A DNA stretch of 64,000 nucleotides. It comes from a virus. The stretch's first letter is position 1. The number at the start of each line of letters is the position of its first letter. A model generated the notes under the pieces. That model was given only the letters and a program-made list of their open reading frames with translations, ran no database searches and was not told the origin of the DNA. The position numbers and the translations under genes are program-made. The stretch lies in the IMG/VR virus record IMGVR_UViG_3300037071_003688, one strand, 5' to 3'. This document shows, in pieces, positions 102 to 27,530 of the stretch.

Positions 102-218
102 ATGCCGCGCTGGGGCCAGTTCGTGATCGGGGTCGTCGCGACAGTGGCGATCTTCGCGCTGGCCCCGTTCATGGCGTCGCGCCGCAACCCGTACCGGCGC
201 GGTGTCCGCTACGAGTGA
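102..218 (+). CDS. Small membrane protein (38 aa, MPRWGQFVIGVVATVAIFALAPFMASRR...)
   Basis: TGATG coupling to the partial ORF ending at 102; one hydrophobic segment and a basic tail; not in the ORF track. Confidence 0.55.
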   Translation: MPRWGQFVIGVVATVAIFALAPFMASRRNPYRRGVRYE

Positions 219-224
219 GACGCG

Positions 225-557
225 ATGAGAACGACGCAGGCGTGCGGACCGGGCGAGTACGAACAGGGCGTGATGCCGACCGTGCGCGCCACGTACACCG
301 GCATCCCCGACCCGGGTGAAACCGAGGGCGACCTGTTCAACCCGACGACGATCACCGTCACCACCAAGTCACCATCGGGAGTCTTGACCGTCTACACGAC
401 GCCGACCGCCGAGATCTCCTCGACCGAGACCGGCTACTGGGACTTCAACTTCCCTGACCCGCTGACCGAGACCGGCAAGTGGGTCGTCACGTTCGTCGGT
501 GGAGGCGCGTCGAAGTCGACGTGGTTCACCATTGTCCGCGCCGCCGTCTACGTCTGA
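225..557 (+). CDS. Small beta-rich virion protein, possible Ig-like fibre adaptor
   Basis: Thr-rich beta-strand pattern (NPTTITVTTKSPSG...TGYWDF...GKWVVTF); first gene of the fibre module. Confidence 0.6.
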   Translation: MRTTQACGPGEYEQGVMPTVRATYTGIPDPGETEGDLFNPTTITVTTKSPSGVLTVYTTPTAEISSTETGYWDFNFPDPLTETGKWVVTFVGGGASKSTWFTIVRAAVYV

Positions 558-643
558 GGCGGTCCCCGAATGACAACGAGAGATCCACTAGATTCCTCTC
601 GCGTAGTTTCCCCGACGTAGTTCACCCGGCCGAGGAGTGGTAA

Positions 644-1108
644 ATGGCAAGCGTCAACTGGTTGACCAACAAGGGCAAGTTGAAGCTGATGCAGGGGTCG
701 TGGGATGACTCGGGCGGCACGGCGATCCGGCTCGGCCTCATCAACGGCACGTCGCGGCCGACGACGATCGACACCGCCGCCGAGGTCGCCGACGTCAACT
801 TCGTGTCCGACTTCCTCGGCCTCTCAGGCGTGGTCGAGTTGACGGTCGCCGGGTACTCGCGTCAGAACCTCACCCGCTCGAACGCGACCGAGGACGACAC
901 CAACGACCGGGTCAACATGGACGCTTCCGATGTCGTGATCTCCGGTGTCGCCGCGGGCGAAACGATCATCGGTGGGTTCGTGTTCGAGTTTGTCACGAAC
1001 GACGCCGACAGCCCGGTGATCAGCGTGTTCCTGTTGGACGCGCCTGGCATCCCGACCAACGGGTCAGACATCACGTTGACCATCACCGATCTCTACCGAG
1101 CCTCGTAG
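644..1108 (+). CDS. Putative major fibre/filament subunit (154 aa)
   Basis: Strong RBS GAGGAG; motifs ELTVAGYSRQ, DASDVV, PTNGSDITLT resemble small phage fibre-forming structural proteins. Confidence 0.65.
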   Translation: MASVNWLTNKGKLKLMQGSWDDSGGTAIRLGLINGTSRPTTIDTAAEVADVNFVSDFLGLSGVVELTVAGYSRQNLTRSNATEDDTNDRVNMDASDVVISGVAAGETIIGGFVFEFVTNDADSPVISVFLLDAPGIPTNGSDITLTITDLYRAS

Positions 1109-1120
1109 GAGGATAGAGCC

Positions 1121-1594
1121 ATGCCAGCACCATCCGGGTCCTACGCCGTCGTTCGATCGAACGTCGCGACCACCACAGCGATCACCGTCATCCAGGTCGC
1201 CACCCCGGCGAACGTGGCGATCGACATCATCCGTGCTTGGGGCGGGCAGTCGTCGTCCACGACGTCGACCGCGACCGCGCTCGGCCTCATCAAGAAGTCG
1301 GCCGCGGCGTCGGTGACGTCGCGGACCCCCGATCCGTTGACGGACGGTATGCAGGCATCGAAGTGCGTCGGTGGCGCCTCGGCGACCGGCATCAACGCTT
1401 CGGCGGAAGGCACCGACGCCGCGAACTACCTGTGGAACGAGGGGTTGAACATCGTCGGCAACGGCTGCCTGTACCTCCCGGTCCCCGAGGAACGCATCGG
1501 TGTCGGACCGTCCGAGTTCATCGGCTTGAAGCACTCCGTCGCCCCGACCGGGAACTGGCTGCACGGCGTCACGTTCCTAGAGTTCAGCTACTAG
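1121..1594 (+). CDS. Small beta-sandwich virion protein (possible trimeric fibre decoration/adaptor)
   Basis: RBS GGAGG; A/T/S-rich beta protein ending VTFLEFSY; similar size and layout to 3845-4291. Confidence 0.6.
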   Translation: MPAPSGSYAVVRSNVATTTAITVIQVATPANVAIDIIRAWGGQSSSTTSTATALGLIKKSAAASVTSRTPDPLTDGMQASKCVGGASATGINASAEGTDAANYLWNEGLNIVGNGCLYLPVPEERIGVGPSEFIGLKHSVAPTGNWLHGVTFLEFSY

Positions 1595-1624
1595 ACCCCG
1601 CGAGCGGCGCGCTCGCGGGGACTA
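1592..1624 (+). terminator. GC-rich hairpin after the first structural genes
   Basis: CCCCGCGAGCG(1596-1606)-GCG-CGCTCGCGGGG(1610-1620) is a perfect 11-bp stem, extendable by TAG/CTA. Confidence 0.7.
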
Positions 1625-1634
1625 AGGTCGGATG

Positions 1635-1871
1635 ATGGGCAAGCTCCTCATGGTCGGCCGCAAGCTGGCCGTGCTCGGCGTCGACATGGACCGCCCCCTC
1701 GGGCCGTGGCACATCATGCAACCCGGTCGTCACGCGATCCCCCAAGTCGGCGAACAAGGCAAGACGATCGGCACGGCCCTGTGTGGCCGGTGGGCGATCA
1801 CCAACGGATACGCAGCCGACTTCGCACCGCAAGGCCAAGAACTCTGCCCAGCGTGCTCCGAGAGGCTGTAA
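1635..1871 (+). CDS. Small zinc-binding protein (H...LCG...CPAC)
   Basis: WH, ALCG and CPAC motifs; TAAGGT -10-like hexamer 6 nt before ATG 1635 (leaderless). Confidence 0.6.
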   Translation: MGKLLMVGRKLAVLGVDMDRPLGPWHIMQPGRHAIPQVGEQGKTIGTALCGRWAITNGYAADFAPQGQELCPACSERL

Positions 1872-1912
1872 TGGCACCGCCGATCACACCGGCAGGGCTG
1901 GTGATCGGCTGA
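1871..1912 (+). CDS. 13-aa coupling mini-ORF MAPPITPAGLVIG
   Basis: Starts in a TAATG overlap with the previous stop and ends in a TGATG overlap with the next start. Confidence 0.45.
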   Translation: MAPPITPAGLVIG

Positions 1913-3831
1913 TGGCCGCCGTTCTTGATGCAGCCTCCAATGATGTGTCGTCTGGTAGCTCGCACACGTTCAGCAAGACATGCACCGGGACAGCAACTAA
2001 CGGAATCCTCCTAGTCGCTGTCACCGTCAGCCACGGCTCGGGTGTCGGCACGGTGACACCGATGACCTGCACCTACGGCGGCGTGTCAATGACCGAGGTT
2101 CGATCCGGCACGGCATCGGGCACGCCCCTCTCAGGCTCGTCGGCCACGTCAGGTATGTGCTTGTTCTATCTGTTGAATCCGGCTGCCGGGGCGGCCAACA
2201 TCGTCGTCACCTACACCGGCAACTCACAGAGTTCCATCATCGCCGCATCGTCGTACATCAACTGCGGCGGCATCGAGAACGTCGCGTCAACAACGTCCAA
2301 CGGCGCTGCGAACTCGCCAACGTTGAGCATCACGTCAGCGAGAGGCAGCCGTGCCTTCTGCGCCGCAAGTCACGGTGACACGATCACCGGGGTCGGCACC
2401 GGAACAAACGAGCGCACACGTCGCAACGTCAACAACACCTTCGCTGGCAACAACATCGTCAGCGGCGACGAGGCTGGCGCAGCAACGGTCGACATGGACT
2501 TCACGTCCTCTGTCAGCGACCAGTGGGTGATGATCGGTCTCAATCTCAGGGCGGTGGCGATTGTCAATGACACCGAGGATGTCAACACCGGACTGGCCAA
2601 TCTTGTGTTCAGTGAGCCTGCCGGACTCGCCGTTGATGATCTGCTGCTGGCTTGCCTGGCGAGCTTTAGCAACGTCGGCGGTGTGATCGCTTCCCCTGGC
2701 AATATCACTGGGTTCACGTCGGTTGTGACGACTACTGCCGACGACGGGACATCGACCATCATGGGGCGGCTCACTCGACGGGTGGCCGATGGGACGGAAG
2801 GGCCGACCTACACGTCGGTTATTGCTGACGGGACGGGATCGTCGGGCAAGCTGCTTCGGATCACCGGAGTTGACACCACCAACCCGGTCAACAACACGGG
2901 TTCGACTGAGGGCACCGGCACGACGCTCACCTTCCCCGTCGTGGCGGTCGTCGGCACGGCGGTGTGCCTGGCGGTCGCAATGGTCAATGGCAACGGCGAC
3001 GTTTCGGGCGGGGCGACTGGCTGGACTCTATACGACGCCTACGACGGGGTTCCCGGTTCGGCGGCGATCTACTACAAGACCGTTTCCCCCGGCCAGTCCA
3101 CGAATGCCGCCACAATCGGTGGGCTGACTTCCGACACGTGGTCAGTGGACGTTGTACTGATTGCGGCGGCACATGTGCCTGTCTACGTCACCGAGACAAC
3201 CGACGACAACGGTGCCGGTGGTGACATCTCGTTCACCGAGCCAGCCAGCTTGGCGATTGCTGATCTGTTGTTGGCTGACATGGTGAACTACGGATCAGGC
3301 GGTCCCAACCCCGGCTTGATCAGCGGCTTCAACAACATCGCCACCGTCAACGGCGGTGTCACCCACGTACGCTCATGCTGGCGTGTTGCTGATGGCACCG
3401 AAGGCCCGACGTACACATCGACCGTCGCTGCCCCAACAGATTTCTCTGGTGGCGAGTTTCTTCACATCACAGATGTGGACCCTACGACACCGATTCACAA
3501 CTTCGGGACGAACAGCGGGTCGAGCAGCACGTTGACCTTGCCGTCAGTAGCCAACACGTCAGGACTGACATGCCTGGCCGTCGCTTACATCGCTCCCGAT
3601 GAGGCGATCACGGCGGACCCGGCCGGGTGGAACGTCATTGGCGGTGCAGGCTCGGGCCTGTATTGGAAGTACGTTGTTGACGGCGCATCGTCGGGGGCCG
3701 GGACTGCGACGGCTGTGGCGACGGCCGACTACTCGGCGGTCGTCGTCCTGGTCGTTGGCGTTCTCACCACCGTGCCACCGCCAGCCCTGATCTTCCCTCT
3801 GCCCATCCGCTCGGCGCTGCGTCTCAGGTAG
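1912..3831 (+). CDS. Three-domain adhesin/receptor-binding-like virion protein (639 aa)
   Basis: Real start MAAVLD at 1912 (TGATG); three ~200-aa beta domains; domains 2 and 3 clearly paralogous (FxEPAxLAxxDLLLA, RVADGTEGPTYTS, ITxVDxTxP, CLAVA); C-terminal PPPALIFPLPIRSALRLR. Confidence 0.75.
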   Translation: MAAVLDAASNDVSSGSSHTFSKTCTGTATNGILLVAVTVSHGSGVGTVTPMTCTYGGVSMTEVRSGTASGTPLSGSSATSGMCLFYLLNPAAGAANIVVTYTGNSQSSIIAASSYINCGGIENVASTTSNGAANSPTLSITSARGSRAFCAASHGDTITGVGTGTNERTRRNVNNTFAGNNIVSGDEAGAATVDMDFTSSVSDQWVMIGLNLRAVAIVNDTEDVNTGLANLVFSEPAGLAVDDLLLACLASFSNVGGVIASPGNITGFTSVVTTTADDGTSTIMGRLTRRVADGTEGPTYTSVIADGTGSSGKLLRITGVDTTNPVNNTGSTEGTGTTLTFPVVAVVGTAVCLAVAMVNGNGDVSGGATGWTLYDAYDGVPGSAAIYYKTVSPGQSTNAATIGGLTSDTWSVDVVLIAAAHVPVYVTETTDDNGAGGDISFTEPASLAIADLLLADMVNYGSGGPNPGLISGFNNIATVNGGVTHVRSCWRVADGTEGPTYTSTVAAPTDFSGGEFLHITDVDPTTPIHNFGTNSGSSSTLTLPSVANTSGLTCLAVAYIAPDEAITADPAGWNVIGGAGSGLYWKYVVDGASSGAGTATAVATADYSAVVVLVVGVLTTVPPPALIFPLPIRSALRLR

Positions 3832-3844
3832 GAGAATACGAACC

Positions 3845-4291
3845 ATGTCCCGATACTCAGCAGGAATGACAGCAGCCGGGGCTGGCACGTCCGGTGGAAC
3901 TGGCCGTCCGATCTTCGGCATCCTCGCCACCGCCGCGGTCACACCCAAGGTCCGAGAGATCGGCATCTTCAACACCACCGCCACCGCCTGCGCGTACCGT
4001 GTCGTGGCGGTCACGGGCGGCACACCGGGAGCGACCGTCACCGCCTACGCGACGGACCTCGGCATCCTCGGCACTCCCACCTGTCTCGCCAAGCAACTGT
4101 GGACCGCCGACATCTCATCCGCGCTCGACACCGGCTACCGCATCCAACTCGGAGCCGCGGTCGGTTCGGGCGGCATCCTCACGTTCGGCGACAACGGGCT
4201 ACGGACCGCGCTGGGTTCGACCATCGCCCTCGCCATCCAGCCGATCGGCACGGGCCAAGTGTGCGAGGTCTACTTCGTCTGGGACGAGTGA
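3845..4291 (+). CDS. Small beta-sandwich virion protein (possible trimeric decoration/adaptor)
   Basis: RBS AGGAG; KVREIGIF strand and C-terminal VYFVWDE; G/T/A-rich. Confidence 0.65.
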   Translation: MSRYSAGMTAAGAGTSGGTGRPIFGILATAAVTPKVREIGIFNTTATACAYRVVAVTGGTPGATVTAYATDLGILGTPTCLAKQLWTADISSALDTGYRIQLGAAVGSGGILTFGDNGLRTALGSTIALAIQPIGTGQVCEVYFVWDE

Positions 4292-4752
4292 GCTTGCGTG
4301 TCGTCGTGTCCGCCGCCAACAAGGACTGCCCCGCCCACCTCGCGTTGAACGCCGAAGGCGTCGACCACGACGTTGTCGGCCACGAGTTGAGTTACGCCGA
4401 ACAACTCGCCGCGTGGTGGCGCGACGGCGAAGGGTTCGTGTTGGTGGAGCATGACGTCGCTCCGTGGCCCGGCGCCATTGGACAACTGATCGGATGTCCC
4501 CGCGATTGGTGCGCCTACCGCTTTCCGAAGTACCAGCATCTGATCCGGTCGCTCGGCTGCGTCAAGTTCTCGACCCGGCTCGTTCGCATCTACCCGGATT
4601 TGCCGTACCGTTGGGAGGGCCTGGCGTTCAACGAGTTCGAGGGTCCGATGCTGTCAGCGATCGCCGACGTGTTGCGGGCCGAGTCTCCCGATCGCAAGCC
4701 GGTGTGTGAGCACTCGCCGCCCGTCGCGCACGTACATCGCGGGGAGGGTTAG
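4288..4752 (+). CDS. Minimal GT-A-fold glycosyltransferase-like protein (154 aa)
   Basis: GTGA overlap start; FVLVEHDVAPWPGAIGQL resembles the hhhhDxD...P...L motif, followed by LGCVKFS and a C-terminal VAH. Confidence 0.6.
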   Translation: MSLRVVVSAANKDCPAHLALNAEGVDHDVVGHELSYAEQLAAWWRDGEGFVLVEHDVAPWPGAIGQLIGCPRDWCAYRFPKYQHLIRSLGCVKFSTRLVRIYPDLPYRWEGLAFNEFEGPMLSAIADVLRAESPDRKPVCEHSPPVAHVHRGEG

Positions 4753-5469
4753 GTGGGGTTCCCGGCGATCGAGACGACCAACGAGTCGAGTACGAACACG
4801 GCAGGCACCAGCCACGTCGTGAGCCTCCCGGCAGGGATCGTCGCTACCGACCTTGTGCTGGTCCTGATGGACATCGGGTCGACGTCGGCGACGCTCAACG
4901 CGCTCACCAACTGGGGCGAGATCCTCGATGAGTCAGCCGCCAACGGATTGAAGATCCTGTGGTACACAGGCGGTGGCGTCCCCAGCAACCCGACGTTCAC
5001 ATCGTCGGCCAGCACGCGTGACGCCACGATCTCGTTGCGAATCTCGAACGCAGACAAGTCGATCACACCGCAAATCGCGACGACCGGCACCGGGACATCG
5101 GCGACGCCTGACCCGCCGTCAGTGACACCGACCGGGGGCGTCGTCAAGGACTACCTGTTCATCGTCATGGCCGGGATGGCGGGCGAGGAAGCCGACGACG
5201 ACACATGGGCCAACACGCCGCCCACCAACTACCTGCCGTCGCCGCCCTACCAGAAGTCGTGCGGCACCGCGGGCACCAACCTCGGTGGTCTGATCACCGT
5301 TGCCACCCGCCAGTTGAACACCGGGGCTGCACAAGATCCCGGCACGTTCGGTGTCGACGTGTCGGCCGCCTGGCGCACGCAGCACATCATCGTCCACCCC
5401 CTTCCGTCCATCATGCCGCCCGAAATCAAGATGCCGCCGATGGTGGCGCCCGCGAGGATCGGGTCCTGA
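4753..5469 (+). CDS. Single-domain adhesin-like virion protein, same domain family as 1912-3831
   Basis: SHVVSLPAGIVATDLVLV, PDPPSVT, AAWRTQHIIVHP; Pro-rich C-terminal tail MPPEIKMPPMVAPAR. Confidence 0.7.
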   Translation: MGFPAIETTNESSTNTAGTSHVVSLPAGIVATDLVLVLMDIGSTSATLNALTNWGEILDESAANGLKILWYTGGGVPSNPTFTSSASTRDATISLRISNADKSITPQIATTGTGTSATPDPPSVTPTGGVVKDYLFIVMAGMAGEEADDDTWANTPPTNYLPSPPYQKSCGTAGTNLGGLITVATRQLNTGAAQDPGTFGVDVSAAWRTQHIIVHPLPSIMPPEIKMPPMVAPARIGS

Positions 5470-8400
5470 TGGTCGCCTACAGGGTCCCCGCCCACAACCC
5501 GCCACGCCTCGCACCCCCGGTGTCGATGGCTGTCGGACCGTTGGCGGCACCACCGCTGACCATCGACATCCCGACCGGCGACATCACGTTCGCGACGGAC
5601 ACCCCCCCGGTCGTCACGGTCGTCCCTCAACTTGACTCACTGCTCAACGACCAGTCACGCCATCACCAGACCGTCCACACAGCGGTGCGCCGCGACCCTG
5701 ACCGGTCTGCGATCTGGAATCACTCAACACGATCGAGATATCAGCAACCCCCGTACCTACGAATCATAGACAACTTCAACCGAGGGACCGTCGACCTTGG
5801 GTACAACTGGCGGTTCCCGGGGCCAGGTGTAATCGACCTCGGGCCGCTAGTCCCACTGTCCATTGTCTCTGACGTCGTGCCTATCAGTTCGCCGCTGATC
5901 GGGGGGATGATCTGGCGTTCCAACAGATTCGCCGACATCCAGTCCGCGGAAGTGACCGTCACGATGGGAAGCGGCGACGGGACCGCTGGCGTCGTGCTTC
6001 TCGCACGGGACGGCAACCTTGACAACTGCTTCATCGCTGTATGGCGCGTCGACAGTGGGATCGGCACCTACAGGGTCTACGCGATCGTCAACGGCATCTC
6101 GGACATCGGCACATTCGCTGTCGCCCCAACATCGGGCACCATACGAATCAAGGGCGAATCCACCGGGACCGGCGTCCGCCTCTACGCCGATGGCGTTCTC
6201 CAACTGACCCGCCTTGATGCCTCGTTCACATCGGGGGATGTGGGCATAGCGGGGTGGGTCTCGACGGGGTCTGCAATCACGCTCGATGACTTCTCTGCGG
6301 AGCCGAGCGTCGAAGACATCCCGAACCTGGCCTACGACCATCGCTTCCTGCGCGGCGACATATTCCGCCGCCCGAACCTCGGGTTGCAGCCGTACAGCCA
6401 GGCGTTGCGTCGGCGATTCGAGGCTCCGCCGTACGTCATCAATCAGGAAGACGATCTAGCACCGATGCTGGTTGCGCAACGACGACCAGCAATCCACGCC
6501 GCGGTGCGTCCACGGCCTGATCGCACCGCACACCGGGCCTCGCTTCCGCGTTACCACCAGTTGCCGCCATTCGTGCTTGACGTCGCCCTGACGATCATCA
6601 TTCCGGTCGCGGATCTGATCTTCGCCGGTGTCGCCCCCACGATCGCGGGAACGGGCACGGCGACCATTCCGATCCCGCCGGGCGACATCACGTTCGCCGG
6701 TGTCGCACCCGACGTCGCGGTCGGCATGGACCCGTTGCTGTACGTCGACATCAATCGTCGCCGTTGGGCGCTCGCCGCCGCGGGTCGTCGCGGCCCACCG
6801 TGGCAGCGACCCACCCGCACCCGCACCACACAAGCCGTTCAGATCGCGGCGCAGACCATCGCGATCCCGCCCGGCGACCTGGTCATCACCGGCGTCGCAC
6901 CAACCGTCACCGGAACGGGCACGGCGACAATCCTCGAACCGACCGGTGCGATCACGTTCCTGGGCATCTCGCCGTTCGTCAGCGCGACCGGTGGCTTCAA
7001 CGTCCAAGTGCCGACAGGCGCGCTCACCATTGATGGCGTCGCGCCTGCGGTCACGACGGGCATGGACCCGTCGCTCATCGTTGACCAGAACCGCCGCCGC
7101 TCCACCCTCGCGATTGCCACCCGGCGAGATCCGGCTCGGCCGTGGCTGCGTTCACATCGCCTCAACGTTCCACTGGTCGCCTACCCGCAGACCATCGCGG
7201 TGCCGCCAGGCGACATCGTGCTCACCGGCGTCGAACCAGACGTCACCGCCGGGATGGACATCGCCCTCATCTACGACCAGAACCGGCGACGTTCCACAGT
7301 CAACACGGCTACCCGACGTGCCCCGGTTCAGCGGCCCGCGGTTCGGCGTGGCGGGACGATCCCGGGCGAAGCGCAGACGATCCCGATCCCACCGGCAGAC
7401 CTGACCCTCGTCGGCGTGGCGCCGATCGTGGCGGGCACCGGCACGGCCACCATCGCCGTCCCACCAGGCGCTCTCACGATTACCGGCGTAGCGCCCGTCG
7501 TCACCGCGACGGGCACCGCCACGATCCCCGTCCCACCAGGCCCGGTCACCCTCACCGGCGTCGCCCCCGTGGTCACATCGACAGGGACGGCGACGATCCT
7601 CGCGCCGACCGGTCAACTGACGATCAACGGCATCTCGCCGTTCGTGTCATCCACGGGCGGCTTCAACGTCCAGATCCCGACCGGCGCACTGACACTGACG
7701 GGCGTCGCCCCGGTCGTTGCCGGTTCGAGTACCGCGACGATCCTCGTCCCGCCCGGTCTGCTCACCATCGACGGCATCGCCCCGGACGTCACGACCGGCA
7801 TGGATCCGGCGCTATACGTCGACGTCAACCGTCGCCGCTCGACGCTGGCCGTCGCTGTCCGCCGACTCCCCGCCCGCTTCTGGGTGCGGCAGAGCAAGCT
7901 CGACCCGAACCTGATCGCGTTCCCGCAGACGATCGCGATCCCACCAGGCGACCTCACTCTGACCGGTGTGGCCCCTGTGGCCACCGCCACGGGCACAGCG
8001 ACGATCCTGACACCTGTCGGTGCGCTCACCATCGACGGCGTCGCTCCGAGCGTTGCAGGCACCGGAACGGCGACGATCCTCGCCCCGGTCGGGCTGATCA
8101 CGCTCACCGGGGTCGAACCGACGATCTTCGCCGGGGACGACCCCGTCTACCTCGCCGACGCCAACGCCGCCTACCGGCAGGCGGTCAACACCGCCGCATG
8201 GCGCAACCCGGACGCATCGGCGCCGTGGAAGTGGATGCTGCGCCGCCGCCGCTCGGATCGGCAGGGCGGTCTGCTCCCATCCGCGGTCGCGGCGGGCTTC
8301 CCGCTCGTTCCGAATGTCAACCGCAAGCAGCAGTTGCAGGTCCGCCTCGTAGCGGCCCGACGCGACGTCAACACCGCCGCCCAACGCGTGATGGCGCAAC

Positions 8401-9512
8401 GGTTCCACTCGGCACCGCCCGCCCCCGAAGCCCAGACGATCGACATCCCGACCGGCGACCTGACCCTGACCGGCGTCGAACCGGTCGTCGCCGGGTCGAG
8501 CACCGCGACGATCCTCGCCCCAATCGGCGCGTTGACGCTGACCGGTGTCGCGCCGACGATCTCGGCCCCGGCCACCATCGCAATCCCGCCGGGCACGCTC
8601 ACGATCACCGGGGTCGCGCCGACTGTTACGCCGACCGGCACGGCGACGATCCTCGCCCCGGTCGGAGCGTTGACGCTCGCAGGCGTCGCGCCAGCCGTCA
8701 CCGTCCGAATCACCATCGCGATCCCGCCTGGCGCCCTCGCGCTGACCGGCGTCGCGCCGGTCGTGACCGCGACGGGGACCGCGACGGTTCTCGCCCCGAC
8801 CGGGCAGATCACGATCAGCGGGCGGACGCCGACCGTCGCCGGGACCGGCACTCGCACGATCCCCGCGCCGACCGGCACGATCACGCTGACCGGGGTCGCG
8901 CCGACCGTCGACGCCAGCACCCGGATCGAGATCCCACCCGGACAGATCACGCTGACCGGTGTCGCCCCCGTCATCACCGCGACCGGGACCGCGACCGTCC
9001 TCGTCCCGACCGGCACGTTGACGATCAACGGTGTCGCCCCGTTCGTCTCCTCGACCGGCGGCTTCAACATTCAGATCCCGACCGGTCTGCTGACCCTGAC
9101 CGGCGTCGCGCCGATCACGACCGGCGGAGCGGGCACCGTCACCATCCCGACCGGCACGCTGACCCTGACCGGTGTGGCACCGATCGTCACGGCCACCGGC
9201 TCGGCGACGGTGCTCGTGCCGACCGCTCAGGTGACGCTCTCGGGTGCCGCACCATCGGTGTCGGGCACCGGCGCCGCCACGTCGATCGAGATCCCGACCG
9301 GCGACATCATCCTCGTCGGCGCCGCGCCAGGGGTCCTGTTCCGCGGCACGGTCTCGTTGGAGGTCCTGGTCCCGACATGCACGCTCGAAGTGCTGGCGCC
9401 GACCGTCGAACTCGAAGTGCTCACCCCGACCGTCGACCTCGACGTGTACGCCACCATCGTCACGCTCGAAGTGCTCGCACCAACAGTGGTGCTCACACAG
9501 TCAGCGGATTAA
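5469..9512 (+). CDS. Giant repeat fibre scaffold/ruler protein (1347 aa) with an inserted lectin-like domain
   Basis: Start MVAYRV at 5469 (TGATG); ~29 copies of a ~24-aa TIxxPxGxLTLTGVAP repeat; ~8 Arg-rich inserts; ConA-like domain DNFNR...LDDFSA (~5760-6305); C-terminal 9-aa TVxLEVLxP repeats. Confidence 0.8.
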   Translation: MVAYRVPAHNPPRLAPPVSMAVGPLAAPPLTIDIPTGDITFATDTPPVVTVVPQLDSLLNDQSRHHQTVHTAVRRDPDRSAIWNHSTRSRYQQPPYLRIIDNFNRGTVDLGYNWRFPGPGVIDLGPLVPLSIVSDVVPISSPLIGGMIWRSNRFADIQSAEVTVTMGSGDGTAGVVLLARDGNLDNCFIAVWRVDSGIGTYRVYAIVNGISDIGTFAVAPTSGTIRIKGESTGTGVRLYADGVLQLTRLDASFTSGDVGIAGWVSTGSAITLDDFSAEPSVEDIPNLAYDHRFLRGDIFRRPNLGLQPYSQALRRRFEAPPYVINQEDDLAPMLVAQRRPAIHAAVRPRPDRTAHRASLPRYHQLPPFVLDVALTIIIPVADLIFAGVAPTIAGTGTATIPIPPGDITFAGVAPDVAVGMDPLLYVDINRRRWALAAAGRRGPPWQRPTRTRTTQAVQIAAQTIAIPPGDLVITGVAPTVTGTGTATILEPTGAITFLGISPFVSATGGFNVQVPTGALTIDGVAPAVTTGMDPSLIVDQNRRRSTLAIATRRDPARPWLRSHRLNVPLVAYPQTIAVPPGDIVLTGVEPDVTAGMDIALIYDQNRRRSTVNTATRRAPVQRPAVRRGGTIPGEAQTIPIPPADLTLVGVAPIVAGTGTATIAVPPGALTITGVAPVVTATGTATIPVPPGPVTLTGVAPVVTSTGTATILAPTGQLTINGISPFVSSTGGFNVQIPTGALTLTGVAPVVAGSSTATILVPPGLLTIDGIAPDVTTGMDPALYVDVNRRRSTLAVAVRRLPARFWVRQSKLDPNLIAFPQTIAIPPGDLTLTGVAPVATATGTATILTPVGALTIDGVAPSVAGTGTATILAPVGLITLTGVEPTIFAGDDPVYLADANAAYRQAVNTAAWRNPDASAPWKWMLRRRRSDRQGGLLPSAVAAGFPLVPNVNRKQQLQVRLVAARRDVNTAAQRVMAQRFHSAPPAPEAQTIDIPTGDLTLTGVEPVVAGSSTATILAPIGALTLTGVAPTISAPATIAIPPGTLTITGVAPTVTPTGTATILAPVGALTLAGVAPAVTVRITIAIPPGALALTGVAPVVTATGTATVLAPTGQITISGRTPTVAGTGTRTIPAPTGTITLTGVAPTVDASTRIEIPPGQITLTGVAPVITATGTATVLVPTGTLTINGVAPFVSSTGGFNIQIPTGLLTLTGVAPITTGGAGTVTIPTGTLTLTGVAPIVTATGSATVLVPTAQVTLSGAAPSVSGTGAATSIEIPTGDIILVGAAPGVLFRGTVSLEVLVPTCTLEVLAPTVELEVLTPTVDLDVYATIVTLEVLAPTVVLTQSAD

Positions 9513-12668: not shown

Positions 12669-14474
12669 CTACGGCGTCGGATACCGATACACGACCCGAC
12701 CGGCCGCGCCAGGCGTGGCCGTCAGACCGAACGCTCCGCCTGCGCCACCTGAACCGGTGTTCGCTGCGGGTGCTACAGCGGCGATGTCGGGGCCGTCCGT
12801 AGCTCCGACAGCGCCGCTGTGAGGAGCCGTCCCGCCGACGTAGGTGCCCGTGAACCGTTGAGCGCCGCCAGGTCCACCATCACCGTAGAAGTCGCCTGAG
12901 CCAGCGGGCCATTCGACGCCTGCGCCGCCGTCACCGGCGTGTCCCGATGTGCTCGACTGAGCGTTCCCACCGTTCGCTGCCGCGCCGCCGCCACCCCCGG
13001 CGCCGAAGTTGTCGGCACCACCAGAGTTGTAGCCGTTACCGCCCGAGTGAACGCCCCCGCCGCCAGTACCACCATGCTGCCCGCCGCCGCCGCCCGCTAC
13101 GCCGCTCGATCCGTTCGCCGTGCCGGACCCGTTCGCGCCGCCGCCCGCGCCACCGGCGAGCGTTGTCGTCGTCGCACCGACGATGACGGTCGGACCACCG
13201 CTCGACCCGTTCGAGTTCGGGACGACTGTGCCGCCAGGGCCGATCGTGATGACCTCCGGGACCGTGATGACCCCGGTCGTAACGTCGTACTCGCCGTTGC
13301 CACCGCCACCGCCGGTCCGCTCCGAGCCAGGATCGCCACCCGCCGCGCCGCCCGCGATAGCGAACCGTTCGATCGGCGCGGGATAGCCGTTCGGGTCGAA
13401 CGTCCCGTCCGCCGTGAACGTGTGATACGTGTATCCGCCGTCCGTCGTGATCGTCCCGCCGGTCGGGATCGGGACCACGTACGGCGTGGTCGCTTGCAGC
13501 CAGATCTCGTGGATCTGGGTCAGAGTCGGCTTGCTCGTTGGACGCCACAAACCTTTGGTCGTGCAGCAGTTCCAGGCCGTGCCGAGACCGGGCAGCGATG
13601 GCCCGGCGTGGTAGCCGATCCCCCAGTACATTCGCACCATCGCCGTCTCGGCGGCTTCGGCCGCGACCGCGCCGCCGTAGGCGTCGAGGTCATCTTCCAT
13701 CTCGAACCATTCGTTGGGTGCAGGTGGGCTGACGGGGAACTCCTCGGCACCGTCAGCCGTGAACGTGTGCTCGAACTCGGTCAGCCCACCTGCGCCGTCG
13801 TAGATGAAGTCCCACATCGTGCGAGTGGCAGCGTCGAAGTAGTGACCGAACAGGTAGTTGCTTGGGTCCGTGATCGAGTTGTCGGCTCCCCATGCTTCGA
13901 TGTCGGTGAACTGATAGAGCAGACCGGCGAAGGCGACGTCCCAGAAGCTCTCTTGAAACCCCTCGAACATCGTGGGGTTGCCCGTGTCCTCGTAGAGGTA
14001 TGTCGAACCGACACCGACCTGAATCCCGTCCCCGGCTACGTCGGTGAAGAACCATTCGCACTCGGACCCGGTCCAAGCCTCAGTCGGCACGCCGGTGCCG
14101 CGGAGCGCGGTGAGGATCGTGGAGGGCAGGACGGTCACCATCAGGAACGCGGCGGTCGTAGGCGGCCCTCCGAGATCGTCCCAGCCGGTCGGGAACGACG
14201 ATCCGCTGTCCGGCTGGGCGAAGTAGTTGTATCGCTTGATCGCCCACCAGTCCCCCGTCCAGGGGCCGCCGCTTCGATCCTCGATCGGTAGATCGAAGAC
14301 CGCGCCCGCCGTGCCCAAGTTGAGCAGGTCGCTCGTGCCACCATCATGGTGGCGTGTGTCGTAGTAGATCACCGGCGCTGGGAGCGGCGGCAACGGCGAC
14401 ACGGCAACGACGGACCCTCTGCTCTTGGGCGGGTCGAACAGCGGCTTGTGCGACGACTCGCGGCGGTGCGGCAT
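12669..14474 (-). CDS. Minor tail protein (LamG-like plus C-terminal glycine-rich domain)
   Basis: Start MPHRRESSHKPLFD at 14474 (TGATG with the sulfotransferase); TGGTITTDGGYTYHTFTADGTF...GGGG...GRVVYRY glycine-rich domain. Confidence 0.75.
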   Translation of the reverse strand: MPHRRESSHKPLFDPPKSRGSVVAVSPLPPLPAPVIYYDTRHHDGGTSDLLNLGTAGAVFDLPIEDRSGGPWTGDWWAIKRYNYFAQPDSGSSFPTGWDDLGGPPTTAAFLMVTVLPSTILTALRGTGVPTEAWTGSECEWFFTDVAGDGIQVGVGSTYLYEDTGNPTMFEGFQESFWDVAFAGLLYQFTDIEAWGADNSITDPSNYLFGHYFDAATRTMWDFIYDGAGGLTEFEHTFTADGAEEFPVSPPAPNEWFEMEDDLDAYGGAVAAEAAETAMVRMYWGIGYHAGPSLPGLGTAWNCCTTKGLWRPTSKPTLTQIHEIWLQATTPYVVPIPTGGTITTDGGYTYHTFTADGTFDPNGYPAPIERFAIAGGAAGGDPGSERTGGGGGNGEYDVTTGVITVPEVITIGPGGTVVPNSNGSSGGPTVIVGATTTTLAGGAGGGANGSGTANGSSGVAGGGGGQHGGTGGGGVHSGGNGYNSGGADNFGAGGGGGAAANGGNAQSSTSGHAGDGGAGVEWPAGSGDFYGDGGPGGAQRFTGTYVGGTAPHSGAVGATDGPDIAAVAPAANTGSGGAGGAFGLTATPGAAGRVVYRYPTP

Positions 14475-15271
14475 CAGTACCCGAAGGTCTGGTGGAACAG
14501 CGGCCAACGCCCCTTGATCTGCGCGGCGAGGTCATCGGGAACGAGGTCCGCATCGACGGGCCGCTGCTCGACCTGCCCGGAGCCGTCATGGGGGAACTTG
14601 AAGCGATACAGAGCGTCGGCGTCGGTGGCGACCGACACGACCTTGTCGAAGTCGTAGTCGAACGGCTCAAGACCGAGATGCTTGTCGATACCACGCATCG
14701 CGACATCGGGGGCAGCGGTGAAGCCCTCGTACACGGCGAAGAACACGAACGGGATGCCGGACTGCGTGAACGGACGACGGCGGATCATGTCCTCGACCGC
14801 GGCGATCGGACCGCCGATCATGCCGCCCTGGGAGAACATGACGTTCGCTTTGTCCCACAACGGTTCGTGTGGGCCGTACTCGGCGGTGGCCCGATGCTGC
14901 TTCTCGATTGAGGCGAACACGTCGCGTGGGTGGCGGACGGCGGCGACCATGCGGGCGTCGGGGTACAGGCGTTGCAACAACAGGTAGCTCCACCCCCAGC
15001 CCCGCGACTTGTCGACTACGAGGCGACCGTCGTCGGGATGCCAGTTGTTGACGATGCCCCGCAACACGGACACGTTGCGTTCACGCGCCTCGGGCAGGCC
15101 GATCAGATCCGACGTGACTTCCGGCGAGTTCGTCAGGAACTCCGACATCTTGGCGAGCGCACCCGGCAGACCGGATGTCGATGAGACCGTGACGTCGTCG
15201 CGTTGGGCGAGCAGGTTGCACAGCAGCGTCGACCCGGAGCGGGGCAGACCGGCGAGCGTCGCGATCCTCAT
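14474..15271 (-). CDS. Sulfotransferase (PAPS-dependent, Sulfotransfer_3-like)
   Basis: 5'-PSB loop GLPRSGSTLL, DKSRGW, 3'-PB motif VRHPRDVFAS, YE...P...MRGIxxHLGLEPF. Confidence 0.9.
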   Translation of the reverse strand: MRIATLAGLPRSGSTLLCNLLAQRDDVTVSSTSGLPGALAKMSEFLTNSPEVTSDLIGLPEARERNVSVLRGIVNNWHPDDGRLVVDKSRGWGWSYLLLQRLYPDARMVAAVRHPRDVFASIEKQHRATAEYGPHEPLWDKANVMFSQGGMIGGPIAAVEDMIRRRPFTQSGIPFVFFAVYEGFTAAPDVAMRGIDKHLGLEPFDYDFDKVVSVATDADALYRFKFPHDGSGQVEQRPVDADLVPDDLAAQIKGRWPLFHQTFGY

Positions 15272-15569: not shown

Positions 15570-16712
15570 CTATGTGATCTTGACGGACACGCCGCCCGAG
15601 CGGATGTAGACGTAGCCGCCAGCGATCCACCACGCCCCGAGCGCCGGGGAGGCCGGGGCACCGTTCGTGTAGACGTGGAAGTCGTTGCCGACCTGGAACG
15701 AATCGGCGACGGCGTTCGTGCCCGGCGCGAACTGCACAGCCCCAGCGGCGGAAGCGACGATCGACTCGCCAGGCTGAGCGTCACCGAAAGCAAACGCACC
15801 TAGCGCCGAAGCGGTGATCAAACCATTGGAACTCGTCGCGGCGACAGCATGACCACCAGCGAACGCTCCCTTGGCGGAGGCCCAGATCCGTGCCAACGCG
15901 GGCGATGCCACGTCGGCGTTGGCGTATCCGAATGCGAGTGCGCCACGCGCTTCGGCATGGACCTGCGCATACGACGTCGTATGCGTCACATCACTCCCGG
16001 TGTAGGCGAATCCGAACGCCCAGCCCTCGGACGTCCTGACCAGCGCCCCGACACCGTACGCGGTGCCGAGCGCGGTCCCTTGCGTCGCGTAGATGTGCCC
16101 GCCGTATGCGGCGTATCCGAAGGCGAGTCCGGCGAATCTGCCCTCGATCGACGTGATGGTCGAGCCGGTCGTCTCGTTCCAGTGGGCCACGTAGCCGCCC
16201 GCCCAGCCGTAGCTCGCATGGATACCCACGGTCGAGCCAGCGCCGGACGCGAACCCGCCACCCACAACCAGCGCAGGGCCATGCAGAGAAAGGCTGGCGT
16301 CACCGCCGTCCTCGCCGTAGATGTAGCCGCCGCAAAGTCCCAACGTGGCGGTCCCGTCTATTTGCCCGGTGGCGGCCCCATCGGTGCCTGCGTACCCGAA
16401 CACGATCCCGCCCGCGTTGTTGGCACTGCTCACGCACGCGAACTCGCCGGTCCCACCCGTCCGTCCGACGACGACGAGACCGGGCTGCACGTCGGCGTGT
16501 GTGATCTTCGTGCCGGGCGGTGTGAACGTTCCGGACGGATAGCCGAGAGAGTTGGCGACGGTCGCCCCGTCACCCACCTTGACGCCGATGCGGCCAGCGG
16601 CACCGGTCAGGCGAACCAACCCCAGTTCTCCGTCGAGCAGCGTCGGGTTGTCCGAGGCCCAGTCCGCCTGTGTGGCACGCTTGATCTGGCCGGGTCCGTT
16701 CAGGGCGGTCAC
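15570..16712 (-). CDS. Tail fibre with Mtd_N/hyaluronidase-N-like domain and YadA-head-like repeats
   Basis: IKRATQADWASDNPTLLDGELG...KVGDG...LGY N-terminus; repeated GAFAFG/GALAFG motifs. Confidence 0.8.
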   Translation of the reverse strand: MTALNGPGQIKRATQADWASDNPTLLDGELGLVRLTGAAGRIGVKVGDGATVANSLGYPSGTFTPPGTKITHADVQPGLVVVGRTGGTGEFACVSSANNAGGIVFGYAGTDGAATGQIDGTATLGLCGGYIYGEDGGDASLSLHGPALVVGGGFASGAGSTVGIHASYGWAGGYVAHWNETTGSTITSIEGRFAGLAFGYAAYGGHIYATQGTALGTAYGVGALVRTSEGWAFGFAYTGSDVTHTTSYAQVHAEARGALAFGYANADVASPALARIWASAKGAFAGGHAVAATSSNGLITASALGAFAFGDAQPGESIVASAAGAVQFAPGTNAVADSFQVGNDFHVYTNGAPASPALGAWWIAGGYVYIRSGGVSVKIT

Positions 16713-18766: not shown

Positions 18767-19266
18767 TACGCGAAGCGTCCCTCAAGGATCGTGCCGGTCA
18801 TCACGAACTCGACCAGCGACAGATCGTCAATCGGATGCGCGAGCTTGAGCGGGTCGAACTGCACGTGCGCCTGCTGCGTAGCGCCGGACGGCTTGACCAG
18901 CGTGCAAAGACGGGCACCATCACCGGTCGTGACCGGGTTGAACACACCGGCGTTGAGGAGACCGATGTTCGTTTCGAGACCGACCGTTGAATCCGCGTAC
19001 GGCGTCCCGGCAGCGTTGAAGTCGCCGGTCACCCAGAACACGAGCGAGAACGGGCATTCGTCGTATTCCTTCGGGTAGCCGACACGGCCGGGAGACGAGG
19101 GGACGACACGGTTCTCACCGACGTAGCTCCGCTCGAACCACAACGTCGTGAGGTCCTGCACCATCCACCCCCACGTGTTGAGCGGGAAGTCCGGTGCATC
19201 TTCGATCGTGAGCGTGCCGTAGCAGTTGGGCGCGCAGCCGAACGGGTGATAGGCGGTGTACGTCAT
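18766..19266 (-). CDS. Distal tail protein (Dit-like)
   Basis: 166 aa directly after tape measure; GENRVVPSSPGR motif. Confidence 0.7.
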   Translation of the reverse strand: MTYTAYHPFGCAPNCYGTLTIEDAPDFPLNTWGWMVQDLTTLWFERSYVGENRVVPSSPGRVGYPKEYDECPFSLVFWVTGDFNAAGTPYADSTVGLETNIGLLNAGVFNPVTTGDGARLCTLVKPSGATQQAHVQFDPLKLAHPIDDLSLVEFVMTGTILEGRFA

Positions 19267-22200
19267 CGGAGCAGTCTCCGCATCTCATCGAGGAACTCGA
19301 ATGCCTTGCGCCGGTTGTTGGATCCGTCGCCGAGATACAGCTTGTCGACCATCACACGATCGACGTACTCCTCCTGCGTGAGCGGGGTCCGCGTCGCCTG
19401 GATCGCCTCGATCATCGCCTGACGGACGACGCGCCCGTCGACGCCACGAGCGTCATGGCCGCGCTCGGCGAGCGCCCTGAACATGCGGTCCAGTTCGGGG
19501 AGCACGACCGGCGGCGACTCGAACACGTTGGTTTCGGATGTCACGTCGGGCATACCTCGTGGACGCACGTCGAGGTCGAGGATCTCCGCGACCTTCATGA
19601 ACACGCCGAGCGCCCCGACGCGCTTGCCCATTCCGAGCGGGATGTACGCCTCGCCGCCGGTTTCGGGTTCGGCCCAGATCCGCGGGCCGCGTGCGATCTG
19701 AGCGGTGTGCGGCGCGTCCATCGTCCCGAAGCCGTGGATGCCGCCCTCGGCGAAGGCACCGCCGCCCTTCCCGAAGATGTCCTCCAACACCGACTGCGGT
19801 GTGTTCCTGCCGGGTCGGCTCCGAGAGGGCGGCGTCACGATGGGCGCGTCGAGGTTGCCGCCGAGTGCGACGGGTATCAGATCCTTGAACTGCTCCGCGA
19901 TCGCCTGCCTCTTGGCGTCATCGACGGCCACTTGCACGTTCTCGATGTTCAACTCGGCCGGAAGTTGAATCGGCGGATCTTGCGATTCGAGCAGCGTCCG
20001 AAGATCTGTCATCTCCTTGTCGATGTCGATGAACTCGGTCTTCAACTCGACAGTGTTCTTGCCGCTGGCGTTGACCTCCTCGACCTGGTCGAGGATCGCC
20101 TGGGTGGCTTCCGCGGCCAACTCCTCCGGCGTCTTGAACTGGGCGGCGACCAGCGCCGGGCCACCGAACCCTTCGAGCCGCTCGACCTGTTTCGCCTCCT
20201 CGACCTGGGCGATGCGTTCGTTGATCGTGGCCAACACTTCCTTCGCCCGGAGATCAATGATCGCCTTGTCGAGTGGAGCGACGTCGATCTCGATCGCCGG
20301 GTGATCCGTGGCGAACGCCTTGAGATCTTCGCGTTGCTTCTCAAGGTCAGCGATCTGCACGTCGAGTTGGACGTCGGTCGGGTCGGTCTGCTGCGCGGCC
20401 TCGACATCCTCGTTGAACGCCGCGACCGCGGCCTGCGCTGCCTGTTCGGCGCCGAGCGCGACCCGGTCGGCGGGCCACACCTGGGCGATGAGTTGGTCGA
20501 CGGTCGTCGGGTCGATGCCACCATCAATGAGCGACTGGCGGAACGGGGCGAGGAACGCTTCGGCTGCGCGTGCCCCGGCGAGCGGATCGGTGAGACCGAT
20601 CGACGCTGCCCGGTCGAGCGCGTCCTGGACGGTGTTCACGATGCCGTCCTGGAAGAACGCTTGCGCCTCCGGTGTCGGTGCCGCCAACAGGAAGTCGAAG
20701 AACGAAAGGTTCGCCTCGGCGGCTTGCGCCGTCAACTGCTGCATCAACGTCGTCGGGACGGTCGACAGTTCCGCCATCTCGGCGCGGACGTCGGCGAGTT
20801 TCTTCAACTCGTCGTCAATCCGATCCTGAATGTCACGCTGGTCGTCGGCGACCTCGTTGGCGACACGAGCGCGGCGGGCGCGAAGCTCGGCGGCACGGTT
20901 CACGAGGCCGAGCGCGTCGGCCTGCGCGATGTCATCATCGAACGCCGACAGCTTGTCCTGACCATCGCGCACGGCCCGGGCAAGCTGCTCTTTGAGATCG
21001 CCCAGCCGGTTCTGCGACTCGTCAATGTTCTTCGTCAGACCTTCGGCTTTCTTGAGGTCATCCTCGTTGACGATGCCGGTCAACGACTTGGTGATGTCAC
21101 GGAAGTCCTGGTCGAGGTTCTGGCTGGCGACCGTCAGATCGAGCTTGGCGCCGATCGAGTCGAGCACGTCACCGAACCGCTTGAACGCGGCAGTGGCCTT
21201 GTCGGCAGCGGATTCGGCTTGCTCGCCGAGCAGCTTGGCCTGCTCGCGGAGTTCCTCCATCGTGATGCCGTCATCGAGGAGCGCCTGCTTCCAGTCGGCC
21301 AACGCCTTGTTGGCCGTGTCGACGGCGTCGGCGGTGTCATCGCCGAGACCCTTCGCGGCATCACCAGTCGCCGACATTGCGTCCCCGAGGACGAACGCCT
21401 TATCGGCAGCGGCATCGGTGCCCGCCACGATGTCCCCATACAGGGTGGGCAGTCCCTCAAGATCCTTGCGGGAATCACCGATCGCGTTGATGACATCGTT
21501 GACCTGTTGGAGGTTGGCGGTCGGGAACTGAATGGTGAGAGCACTGAGCAGGTCGCCCTCATCCTTGATGGCGACCAGGTCTCCGAGCACTGCATCGGAG
21601 ATGCCAAGGTTCTTGACCGCATCCTTCGTCGCTGTCAGCCGGACGATAAGTCCATTCATGAACTTGCCGAACTGCTCCTCGCCTGCGAGTGCCTCTTGGC
21701 GGATGGTTTCCTTGTCGATGCCCAGCGACCGGAGCAGGGTGAACCCTTGCGGGCCGAGCGCCTCGTCCACCAGGTCGGCGAACACTCGACTGTTGATGAC
21801 CCCCTTGAGATTGATGAGATCGTCGGAGAACTCGGATCGGATCTTGTCAGCGAGTGATTCGATCGACCGTTCGAGTTCCTCTGCCTCTCTCTGGCCGTCG
21901 ATGAAGCCTTGAGCGATGAGACCGACCCCGACACCGATGGTGGCGAAGATGCCGCCCGGCACGCCGCCGGTGGCGAGTCCGGTCAACACGGAACCGATCG
22001 CGCCGACCGCGCCGGTGATCCGGGTGGCCGCGTCCTCGGAGGCGAGCGCCATCCCCGAGAAGGCGCCTGCGATGGCGACACCGAAGCCCTGCGCCACGGC
22101 CCCCGACTTGGTGAGGTTGGCAACCTCGGACCGCACCGCCTGGAAACTGGACTGTCCCGCGGCTCGGAACTCCCCGAAGTCGCTGACCGCTGTCTTGAGG

Positions 22201-25976: not shown

Positions 25977-26063
25977 CGTCGTAGTTACATGGTCCGCGTT
26001 TGGTGATAGCGGACGTGCAAACATGTTCGCCGTGGTACCCGCACGTAGCCGAGGAGTAACGCC

Positions 26064-27357: not shown

Positions 27358-27530
27358 TGCGGTACGTGCTGATCGTCTCCCCGTTCCTGACCGCACCGAA
27401 GGGCACCATCGTGTCCCAGGATCGGCTCGGCATGACCGACGACAAGCTGGACGAGTTCATCGAGGCGGGGTTCGCCATCGAGTGTGAGATCGAGGAAGTC
27501 GATGGCGACGGTCACGACCAACACGCGTGA
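27357..27530 (+). CDS. Small hypothetical protein (57 aa, MRYVLIVSPFLTAPKG...)
   Basis: TGATG coupling; good codon usage; not in the ORF track. Confidence 0.6.
   Translation: MRYVLIVSPFLTAPKGTIVSQDRLGMTDDKLDEFIEAGFAIECEIEEVDGDGHDQHA

Follow-up and report, generated by a model that had tools for sequence, protein, structure and literature searches.

A phage operon that pairs a 154-residue bead protein with a 29-repeat rope protein probably encodes a chain-like accessory virion fibre

The window analysed here is a stretch of 64,000 nucleotides from the IMG/VR virus record IMGVR_UViG_3300037071_003688 (bases 69200-133199 of a 147.5-kb record that is estimated to be 97% complete and has about 65% G+C). 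It begins with a plus-strand operon (225-9512) whose last gene encodes a 1347-residue protein built mostly of short repeats. We consider it probable, at about 0.62, that this operon encodes an accessory virion fibre of the chain-like ("beads-on-a-rope") kind, in which the 1347-residue protein is the rope and a dimer of a 154-residue protein, the bead, sits on each repeat. An initial annotation of this DNA had proposed a fibre templated by the repeats and knew of no such appendage in the literature. The core architecture is in fact already known as the "chain-like fibre" of GP4, A1002 and Bas63: Fiber I of phage GP4, the chain-like fibre of A1002 and the whiskers of Bas63 and Sf14 all follow this design (PMC12609058, PMC13730344). 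The features on which the proposal rests are:

631-643, plus strand: Shine-Dalgarno sequence GAGGAG, 6 nucleotides before the ATG at 644 and after an 86-nucleotide intergenic gap
644-1108, plus strand: bead subunit, 154 residues, with the fold of GP4 gp80 and the whiskers (AlphaFold2 model and its structural neighbours)
5469-9512, plus strand: rope protein, 1347 residues, with homologues P0002-P0024
5757-6338, plus strand: probable ConA/LamG-like lectin-type domain, rope residues 97-290
6582-9341, plus strand: main repeat array of 28 units, rope residues 372-1291, interrupted by Arg-rich inserts
8499-8714, plus strand: rope segment modelled with beads, residues 1011-1082, in which residues 1032-1057 (one repeat) are clamped by two beads
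9342-9509, plus strand: C-terminal tail of 9-residue LEVLxPTVx repeats (a 27-nucleotide repeat) over the last 55 residues, conserved in P0002

In the proposed fibre, each of the 29 units of about 24 residues (core IPxGxLTLTGVAP) would be an extended docking site, and a bead dimer would clamp it by beta-sheet augmentation, using an N-terminal strand or helix and the C-terminal strand. The number of consecutive repeats would set the length of each stiff, bead-coated segment; at about 27 Å per dimer, as in A1002, the fibre would reach roughly 80 nm with all 29 sites filled. Host surface glycans would be bound by the lectin-type domain of the rope and by an adhesin-like domain, which is a separate 238-residue protein here and lies within the rope in relatives. 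Since the rope carries a lectin-type and, in relatives, an adhesin-like domain, the fibre is most likely an adsorption device that binds such glycans.

Results

Repeat architecture of the rope protein

All the elements that had been described in the 1347-residue protein were found, namely 29 repeats, about eight Arg-rich inserts and C-terminal 9-residue repeats. The protein starts with one repeat and an insert, continues with the ConA/LamG-like domain and 28 more repeats arranged in runs, and ends in the 9-residue-repeat tail, which possibly anchors the rope to the virion. The 29 matches to the core P-x-G-x-L-T-L-T-G-V-A-P are mostly spaced 24 residues apart (range 22-25), or 62-65 residues where an Arg-rich insert intervenes, and the consensus of the unit is GtaTIliPtGdLTLTGVAP.VtaT. 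Most inserts are about 40 residues long and one is about 100; the runs between them comprise 1-13 units. The insert motif MDPxLxVDxNRRRS...RR is clear in four or five inserts, and about three more are degenerate. On the DNA of the array, Tandem Repeats Finder reported periods of 72, 138 and 210 nucleotides with copies 72-79% identical. Because the DNA copies are no more alike than this, the repeats are old and have been kept at the protein level. A triple beta-spiral reading of the repeats, as in the adenovirus shaft, was considered at first and then set aside.

The public gene call for the rope (P0001, 1201 residues) begins at Met147, and codons 1-146 hold a repeat unit and an insert motif. 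As residues 25-146 are conserved in P0002, the true start of the gene is most likely 5469 and P0001 is too short. Residues 97-290 probably form a ConA/LamG-like lectin domain: they weakly match the levanase CBM66 (E 0.03) and do not match Laminin_G_3 (PF13385), a family to which the orthologous domain of the related contig L095 scores 9.2e-5 (23.1 bits, below the Pfam cut-off of 27.6).

Elsewhere in the window, a Cys-rich 188-residue protein (26791-27357) ends in SITVPPADLGVAPV, which looks like one rope repeat minus three residues. This C-terminus is not significant against the repeat profile and the likeness may be accidental, or else a neck protein may offer one docking site for beads here.

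Fold and family of the bead protein

An exhaustive profile-free search with the 154-residue protein gave 471 cluster representatives at E <= 0.001, most of them stand-alone proteins of 135-160 residues and some of them tandem duplications. The AlphaFold2 model, built on an alignment of 66 family members (A1), reached a predicted local distance difference test score (pLDDT) of 93.3 and a predicted template modelling score of 0.88. The ten structures closest to it all come from the tail or neck of a phage, at middling Z-scores, with unrelated folds appearing from Z of about 5. The neighbours of the bead model (comparison VIA) include:

T4 gp7-like baseplate proteins: Z 9.3-9.6
Bxb1 gp31, "tail wing arm": Z 8.9
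GP4 "Fiber I" chain 8jou_a: Z 8.3, root-mean-square deviation 2.9, 115 of 136 residues
HFTV1 tail protein: Z 7.5
Bas63 chain 9mt4_K: Z 7.4
Sf14 chain 9c39_K: Z 7.0

In agreement with these comparisons, a shape search of the ESM Atlas placed the bead with a cluster of which 64% of the members belong to PF23140 (Gp80), with template modelling scores of 0.69/0.75 over 130 residues. PF23140 itself (podophage GP4 fiber I gp80) weakly matches 9 of 67 bead-family members (best E 5.5e-4) and no other family recurs among them, and the bead-family profile matches Bxb1 gp31 at E 3.7e-6.

The gene at 644-1108 had been described as strongly translated; a strong Shine-Dalgarno sequence lies 6 nucleotides from its ATG. 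It is the single bead gene of the 147-kb genome. The relative L002 has two more bead-family genes (4395-4868, E 6e-19, and 25809-26222 on the minus strand, E 4e-13, both to the family profile), one of which sits among tail genes.

Modelled complex of beads and repeats

We modelled four copies of the bead (alignment A1) together with three repeats (rope residues 1011-1082). The prediction that the two proteins would associate was borne out in the model, which scored 0.68 (median of three runs) against 0.07 for the best of three controls. Of 80 solved complexes 58 reach the pass mark used here, as do 2 of 110 mismatched pairs; since the input consisted of our own alignments and several copies, these counts apply only roughly in this case. 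At least 43% of contacts are common to the runs, in which the rope partner has a pLDDT of at least 49. Two beads lie on one repeat in the best run, rope residues 1032-1057, one on IPPGTL and the other on ITGVAP. Each bead contacts the rope through its C-terminal strand (145-153) and through N-terminal residues 1-7, 12 and 15, and the rope residues contacted are the most conserved positions of the repeat unit.

The initial annotation had each repeat docking one subunit or a subunit oligomer; the fold match, the gene adjacency described below and the complex model support such docking in silico, with a dimer as the oligomer. Likewise, its proposal that repeat number sets fibre length held in silico for a bead-coated fibre.

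Pairing of bead and rope genes

The rope homologues P0002-P0024 all contain 20-24-residue repeats of the same type, with at least 27 of them in L002. In each of the eight loci for which DNA was available (the window, L002, L003 and L009-L013), a gene for a protein of about 150 residues lies shortly upstream of the repeat-protein gene, and those near the ropes of unrelated phages encode proteins that are remotely homologous to it (to the bead, by hhalign: probability 97.5%, E 5.8e-12, 144 columns). For a wider comparison, 80 loci were fetched from IMG/VR with the bead subfamily A2, taken from repeat-protein loci, and open reading frames of at least 150 codons starting right after the bead gene were scored, at least three motifs counting as a rope. 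This threshold was reached by 34 of 54 reading frames directly downstream of the bead gene, compared with 3 of 688 others, and the three exceptions are ropes slightly further downstream. Many of the IMG/VR ropes are short (188-423 residues), and those of L086 and L058 consist almost wholly of repeats. Bead and repeat-rope genes thus co-occur, a check of the kind that the initial annotation had asked for, and as a pair they are frequent in viral metagenomes.

Four unrelated loci carry, immediately upstream of their bead gene, a gene for an MptE-like (PF01973) protein (L003:4774-6646, L010:7256-8710, L011:7849-9318 and L013:4475-5953), in which the PF01973 domain is fused to a methyltransferase domain in L010, L011 and L013. 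We take PF01973 to be a domain of Maf-type flagellin glycosyltransferases; if it is of that type here, the Thr/Ser-rich bead or rope may be glycosylated in the phages of these four loci.

The other operon proteins

All eight plus-strand reading frames listed for the operon are present (the bead and rope genes and six of those below, with the 640-residue gene starting at about 1909). Two conserved small genes, at 103-218 and 1632-1871, had been missed.

103-218, plus strand: 38-residue hydrophobic mini-gene product, encoded between the 311-residue head-module gene and the 110-residue gene; same place in L002, L094 and L095
225-557, plus strand: 110-residue all-beta protein of a narrow family, with 12 close homologues only; 89% identical in L002 and L095
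1121-1594, plus strand: 157-residue protein, whose gene adjoins the bead gene throughout the lineage; 92-94% identical in L002 and L095
1592-1624, plus strand: 11-bp GC-rich stem-loop at the stop of the 157-residue gene, with a perfect stem and no T-run
1632-1871, plus strand: 79-residue Cys-rich protein with a CPAC motif near the C-terminus; homologues of 77-78 residues at the same place in L002 and L095
1909-3831, plus strand: 640-residue protein with an N-terminal minor-tail-family domain, two similar adhesin-like modules of about 200 residues and a Pro-rich tail
3845-4291, plus strand: 148-residue protein without family matches; no BLAST match outside the window and none in the relatives fetched
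4288-4752, plus strand: conserved 154-residue protein, earlier called glycosyltransferase-like; nine homologues, none named
4753-5469, plus strand: 238-residue adhesin-like domain protein, with a TGATG stop/start overlap with the rope gene inside a Pro-rich linker

The 38-residue product probably spans a membrane, and the 79-residue protein may bind zinc. The genes for the 110-, 154- and 157-residue proteins are 89-95% identical across the relatives L002, L094 and L095, and those between this block and the rope gene vary among the same relatives, as expected of host-range modules. The 110-residue protein has no match in PDB or in the family libraries, even as a profile, and a homologue occurs in a contig where no gene for the 154- or 157-residue protein follows; it is a candidate collar, anchor or head-module protein. 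The 157-residue protein, which falls in unnamed viral clusters of the Atlas, is a possible second partner of the rope.

The reading frames at 1121 and 3845 had been described as two beta proteins of about 150 residues; both are there, but the proteins are detectably related neither to each other nor to the bead, and hhalign of the bead profile against them found no relation. Residues 10-229 of the 640-residue protein match phrog_553, annotated as "minor tail protein" in actinophages (E 2e-14), the name being an annotation only. For the protein at 4288-4752, the glycosyltransferase-like call found no backing: neither its sequence nor a profile of its nine homologues (A5) matched anything in Pfam, PHROGs, NCBIfam or PDB. 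The family has an invariant E54..D56, which by itself does not put the call to the test.

The short Pro/Arg tails of the adhesin-like proteins had been interpreted as docking peptides. The 238-residue protein aligns at 29-31% identity with two stretches of P0002 (residues 323-529 and 679-801) and with one of the giant protein of L095 (residues 40-217); this type of domain is N-terminal in the L095 giant protein and embedded twice in that of L002, each time followed by a Pro-rich linker and a repeat unit. Because the adhesin-like domain is thus covalently part of the rope in these relatives, and the break in the window lies within the linker, the tails are most simply remnants of that linker; the repeat profile finds no match in them. 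One lineage (the window, L002 and L094/L095) holds all occurrences of the Arg-rich insert motif and of the genes for the 110- and 157-residue proteins, which is compatible with a pairing between them and is confounded by common descent, as it concerns one lineage and four loci.

Among all eight operon proteins, Pfam and NCBIfam gave no match, and PHROGs gave unnamed or weak families only, phrog_553 excepted. Sequence searches of PDB with the rope, the 640-, 110- and 157-residue proteins and the supposed glycosyltransferase returned nothing useful. Neither a DNA search nor tblastn with the 640-, 1347- and both 154-residue proteins matched anything in the phage collection, where annotated relatives were found only with the capsid protein. 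Scans for promoters and terminators gave signals no better than those in shuffled sequence. The stem-loop at 1592-1624 has a folding energy of -26.1 kcal/mol (z -3.3; 1 of 200 shuffles as good) and may act as an attenuator that sets the genes of the abundant small subunits apart from those that follow. Together with the strong Shine-Dalgarno sequence of the bead gene, a hairpin after the 157-residue gene would fit many beads per rope.

Genomic setting

The operon had been regarded as stand-alone. It is instead a gapless continuation, on the same strand, of the head module and makes up its distal end: upstream of it come a gene like those for portal/MuF proteins, that of the major capsid protein (phrog_777, 2.8e-65) and a 311-residue gene. 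At its other end it meets the lysis and tail genes in convergent orientation. The capsid gene lies shortly before the window, and its product is about 30% identical to the protein called "major capsid hexamer protein" in phages of Arthrobacter, Gordonia and Microbacterium, so the host is probably an actinobacterium. The genome also encodes, on the minus strand at 19263-25115, a tape measure of 1950 residues, which marks the phage as long-tailed.

Where on the virion the fibre would sit is hinted at by gene order. The operon follows the capsid genes, and in L003, an SU10-like contig, the repeat protein is encoded between the capsid and adaptor genes; both placements hint at the neck. Among the solved relatives, those of Bas63, Sf14 and GP4 are attached at the neck, that of A1002 at the nozzle and gp31 of Bxb1 at the tail tip (PMC12646305).

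Two further gene neighbourhoods were recorded in this genome. Among the tail genes on the minus strand, a sulfotransferase-family gene (PF13469, 7.8e-12) lies beside that of a protein weakly matching Mtd_N, the N-terminal family of the major tropism determinant (14474-15271 and 15570-16712). Directly upstream of the portal-like gene, L005:8692-9828 (genome 62891-64027) encodes a 378-residue 2'-5' RNA ligase/LigT-like protein, and the order of these two genes is kept in L094 and one further contig.

Discussion

Alternative readings

Several observations weigh against beads on a rope. The 154-residue protein of the window has no Pfam match at E <= 0.1 and stays below the cut-off of PF23140, for which reason it counts here as a distant relative of gp80 outside that family. 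No collar or adaptor homologue was identified; by size and position, the 110-residue protein is the only adaptor candidate. In the best run of the complex model, only two of the four beads had a confident placement, and the pLDDT of the rope partner was only 50-61. The predictor may also be recalling the solved GP4-like complexes, and because similar complexes have already been solved, the score shows likeness and not proof of binding.

Other points are those that a self-folding fibre would explain. The repeats might form a beta-solenoid or an intertwined trimeric beta-helical shaft, with the 154-residue protein as a terminal adaptor, a free-standing counterpart of the N-terminal domain by which tail fibres attach to the virion, that joins one end of the fibre to the baseplate or neck. 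The initial annotation had itself named self-folding repeats with no predicted interface to the small proteins as an outcome that would count against its proposal, and AlphaFold2 of rope residues 630-1347 alone did return regular, solenoid-like repeats of three strands with pLDDT peaks of about 80; yet the mean was 56.5, the five models were scattered between 38.7 and 56.5, and the inserts and the C-terminal tail fell below 50, so that this model speaks neither for nor against autonomous folding. The bead fold is also that of conventional anchors. It is the N-terminal domain of two metagenome proteins, P0100 (a classical fibre of 1683 residues with a Phage_tail_C tip) and P0051 (with LamG-like, PKD and GH18 domains); many "tail collar fiber" N-termini in BFVD match it; and its top Z-scores belong to the T4 gp7-like baseplate proteins. 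Since the fold occurs in conventional fibre N-termini and baseplate proteins, it does not by itself imply beads, and the P0100 and P0051 fusions may be either beads that bear side fibres or enzymes, or ordinary fibre anchors. A self-folding shaft nevertheless seems unlikely to us, since the complex model puts bead dimers on an internal repeat, well above controls and with contacts at the most conserved repeat positions. A purely terminal adaptor also fits poorly with the short, nearly all-repeat ropes that directly follow bead genes in dozens of IMG/VR contigs, and with the strong Shine-Dalgarno sequence of a single bead gene, which suggest a high copy number of the bead.

The initial annotation had gone further than beads on repeats, making the inserts branch points for the 157- and 148-residue proteins and for adhesins held by their Pro/Arg tails, and having the 9-residue repeats bind the 110-residue protein as an adaptor. 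Precedents for single elements of this scheme can be found: A1002 has two bead proteins on one rope (PMC13730344), and in GP4 an Ig-like (immunoglobulin-like) adaptor of about 93 residues interlocks with the rope (PMC11445570, PMC12609058). Moreover, the insert motif and the 110- and 157-residue genes share one lineage, and a 238-residue domain split from the rope requires some non-covalent attachment. Taken as a whole, the scheme is nonetheless very doubtful. The shared lineage is open to the confounding by descent noted above, the tails are most simply linker remnants that do not resemble the repeats, the 157- and 148-residue proteins are not bead-like, and the 110-residue homologue occurs without a following 154- or 157-residue gene. 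A composite form, in which the runs of 1-13 repeats would be stiff segments, the inserts would be joints or branch points recruiting the lineage-specific 157- and 148-residue proteins, and the lectin-type and adhesin modules would be either embedded in the rope or split from it, is less far-fetched, though we still think it improbable. If it were true, this long-tailed actinophage would carry a branched appendage, about 80 nm in extent, that far exceeds every solved chain-like fibre in size and complexity, and both the length and the shape of the fibre could be read directly from the rope sequence.

Finally, the rope could be a decoration or fibre bound to the capsid, with the Arg-rich inserts contacting the capsid and the small proteins being unrelated parts of the head-tail connector. 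The position of the operon directly after the major capsid and 311-residue genes and the gene order of L003 would suit this arrangement, which concerns location more than mechanism and is in that respect compatible with a bead-coated rope. As a rival we rate it as very improbable indeed: the fold of the 154-residue protein and its pairing with ropes argue against a connector role, a Neck1-like gene lies elsewhere (27484-27897), and the bead relative Bxb1 gp31 is located at the tail tip (PMC12646305).

Comparison with known fibres

The fibres of GP4, A1002, VP1, Bas63 and Sf14 (PMC12609058, PMC13730344) consist of dimers of 140-171-residue beads that are beta-augmented on a rope, which holds 5, 11 or 2 of them; each whisker monomer has a beta-sandwich that is incomplete on its own and is filled up by the rope (PMC12609058). 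GP4 Fiber I (Ralstonia podophage, PDB 8JOU; Zheng et al. 2023, as described in PMC12609058, PMC13730344 and PMC11445570) shares with the window a bead of about 140-154 residues and the same fold (Z 8.3), a rope encoded by a separate gene and, in our model, one bead dimer per site bound by strand augmentation. The GP4 rope carries five Fiber-1 dimers (PMC12609058), whereas the rope of the window has 29 candidate sites in the form of an overt 24-residue sequence repeat and also has lectin-type domains and Arg-rich inserts. GP4 is a podophage and the phage studied here has a long tail with a 1950-residue tape measure. The anchor of GP4 is known, a 93-residue Ig-like "tail-fiber adapter" (PMC11445570); no homologue of it was found here, and the bead of the window, unlike that of GP4, falls below PF23140.

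In A1002, a Pseudomonas podophage, the nozzle-rope gp39 has eleven docking sites over about 300 Å, and dimers of the beads gp40 and gp41 (147 and 171 residues) form an augmented beta-sheet with it (PMC13730344). Tandem bead dimers on an extended polypeptide with a globular (Ig-like) domain, and docking sites spaced about 20-24 residues apart, are the points of likeness. In A1002 the rope is part of the nozzle protein and there are two bead types, whereas the window has a free-standing rope of 1347 residues and one recognisable bead gene. The collar whiskers of the myophages Bas63 and Sf14 (PDB 9MT4 and 9C39; PMC12609058) have the same bead fold (Z 7.4 and 7.0); in Bas63 the whisker (gp5) dimers follow one another along a rope "like beads on a string", and in both cases, as in the window, the genes lie near head genes. 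Their rope is an N-terminal extension of the Ig-like collar protein and holds two dimers only, and attachment to the neck has been demonstrated, whereas for the fibre proposed here gene order hints at it.

By sequence, no solved protein is closer to the bead family than Bxb1 gp31, the tail wing arm of a mycobacteriophage (PDB 9D93; PMC12646305), which also shares its fold. Like the fibre proposed here it is an actinophage accessory, being a non-essential tail appendage, but it has 106 residues and sits on the wing base gp30 at the tail tip, and the available part of PMC12646305 describes no repeat rope. Tape measure proteins resemble the rope in that the length of one polypeptide sets the length of an assembly; they are helical, lie inside the tube and are not arrays of discrete docking repeats, and this genome has one of its own. 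The N-terminal domains of conventional fibres and the T4 gp7-like baseplate proteins share the fold class, and fused forms exist within the bead family (P0100, P0051); in conventional fibres the fibre follows covalently, whereas the bead of the window stands alone and is paired with a repeat protein.

Implications

Chain-like fibres have so far been seen in a handful of cryo-electron microscopy structures, with 2-11 bead dimers per rope. What is new here is the scale (29 candidate sites and about 80 nm, if A1002 is taken as the guide), a docking repeat that is overt in the sequence, the inserts and lectin modules set between repeats, the occurrence in a long-tailed and probably actinobacterial phage, and the finding that the pair of bead and rope genes is common in viral metagenomes. 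If the fibre is as proposed, its length and the pattern of its segments would be predictable from sequence alone, and many unannotated phage "giant repeat proteins" and hypothetical proteins of about 150 residues would become annotatable. The bead protein with a chosen number of repeats would make a simple bench system and a modular scaffold of defined length. The design would also become accessible outside podophages and myophages, since the tail of this phage is long and defined by a tape measure.

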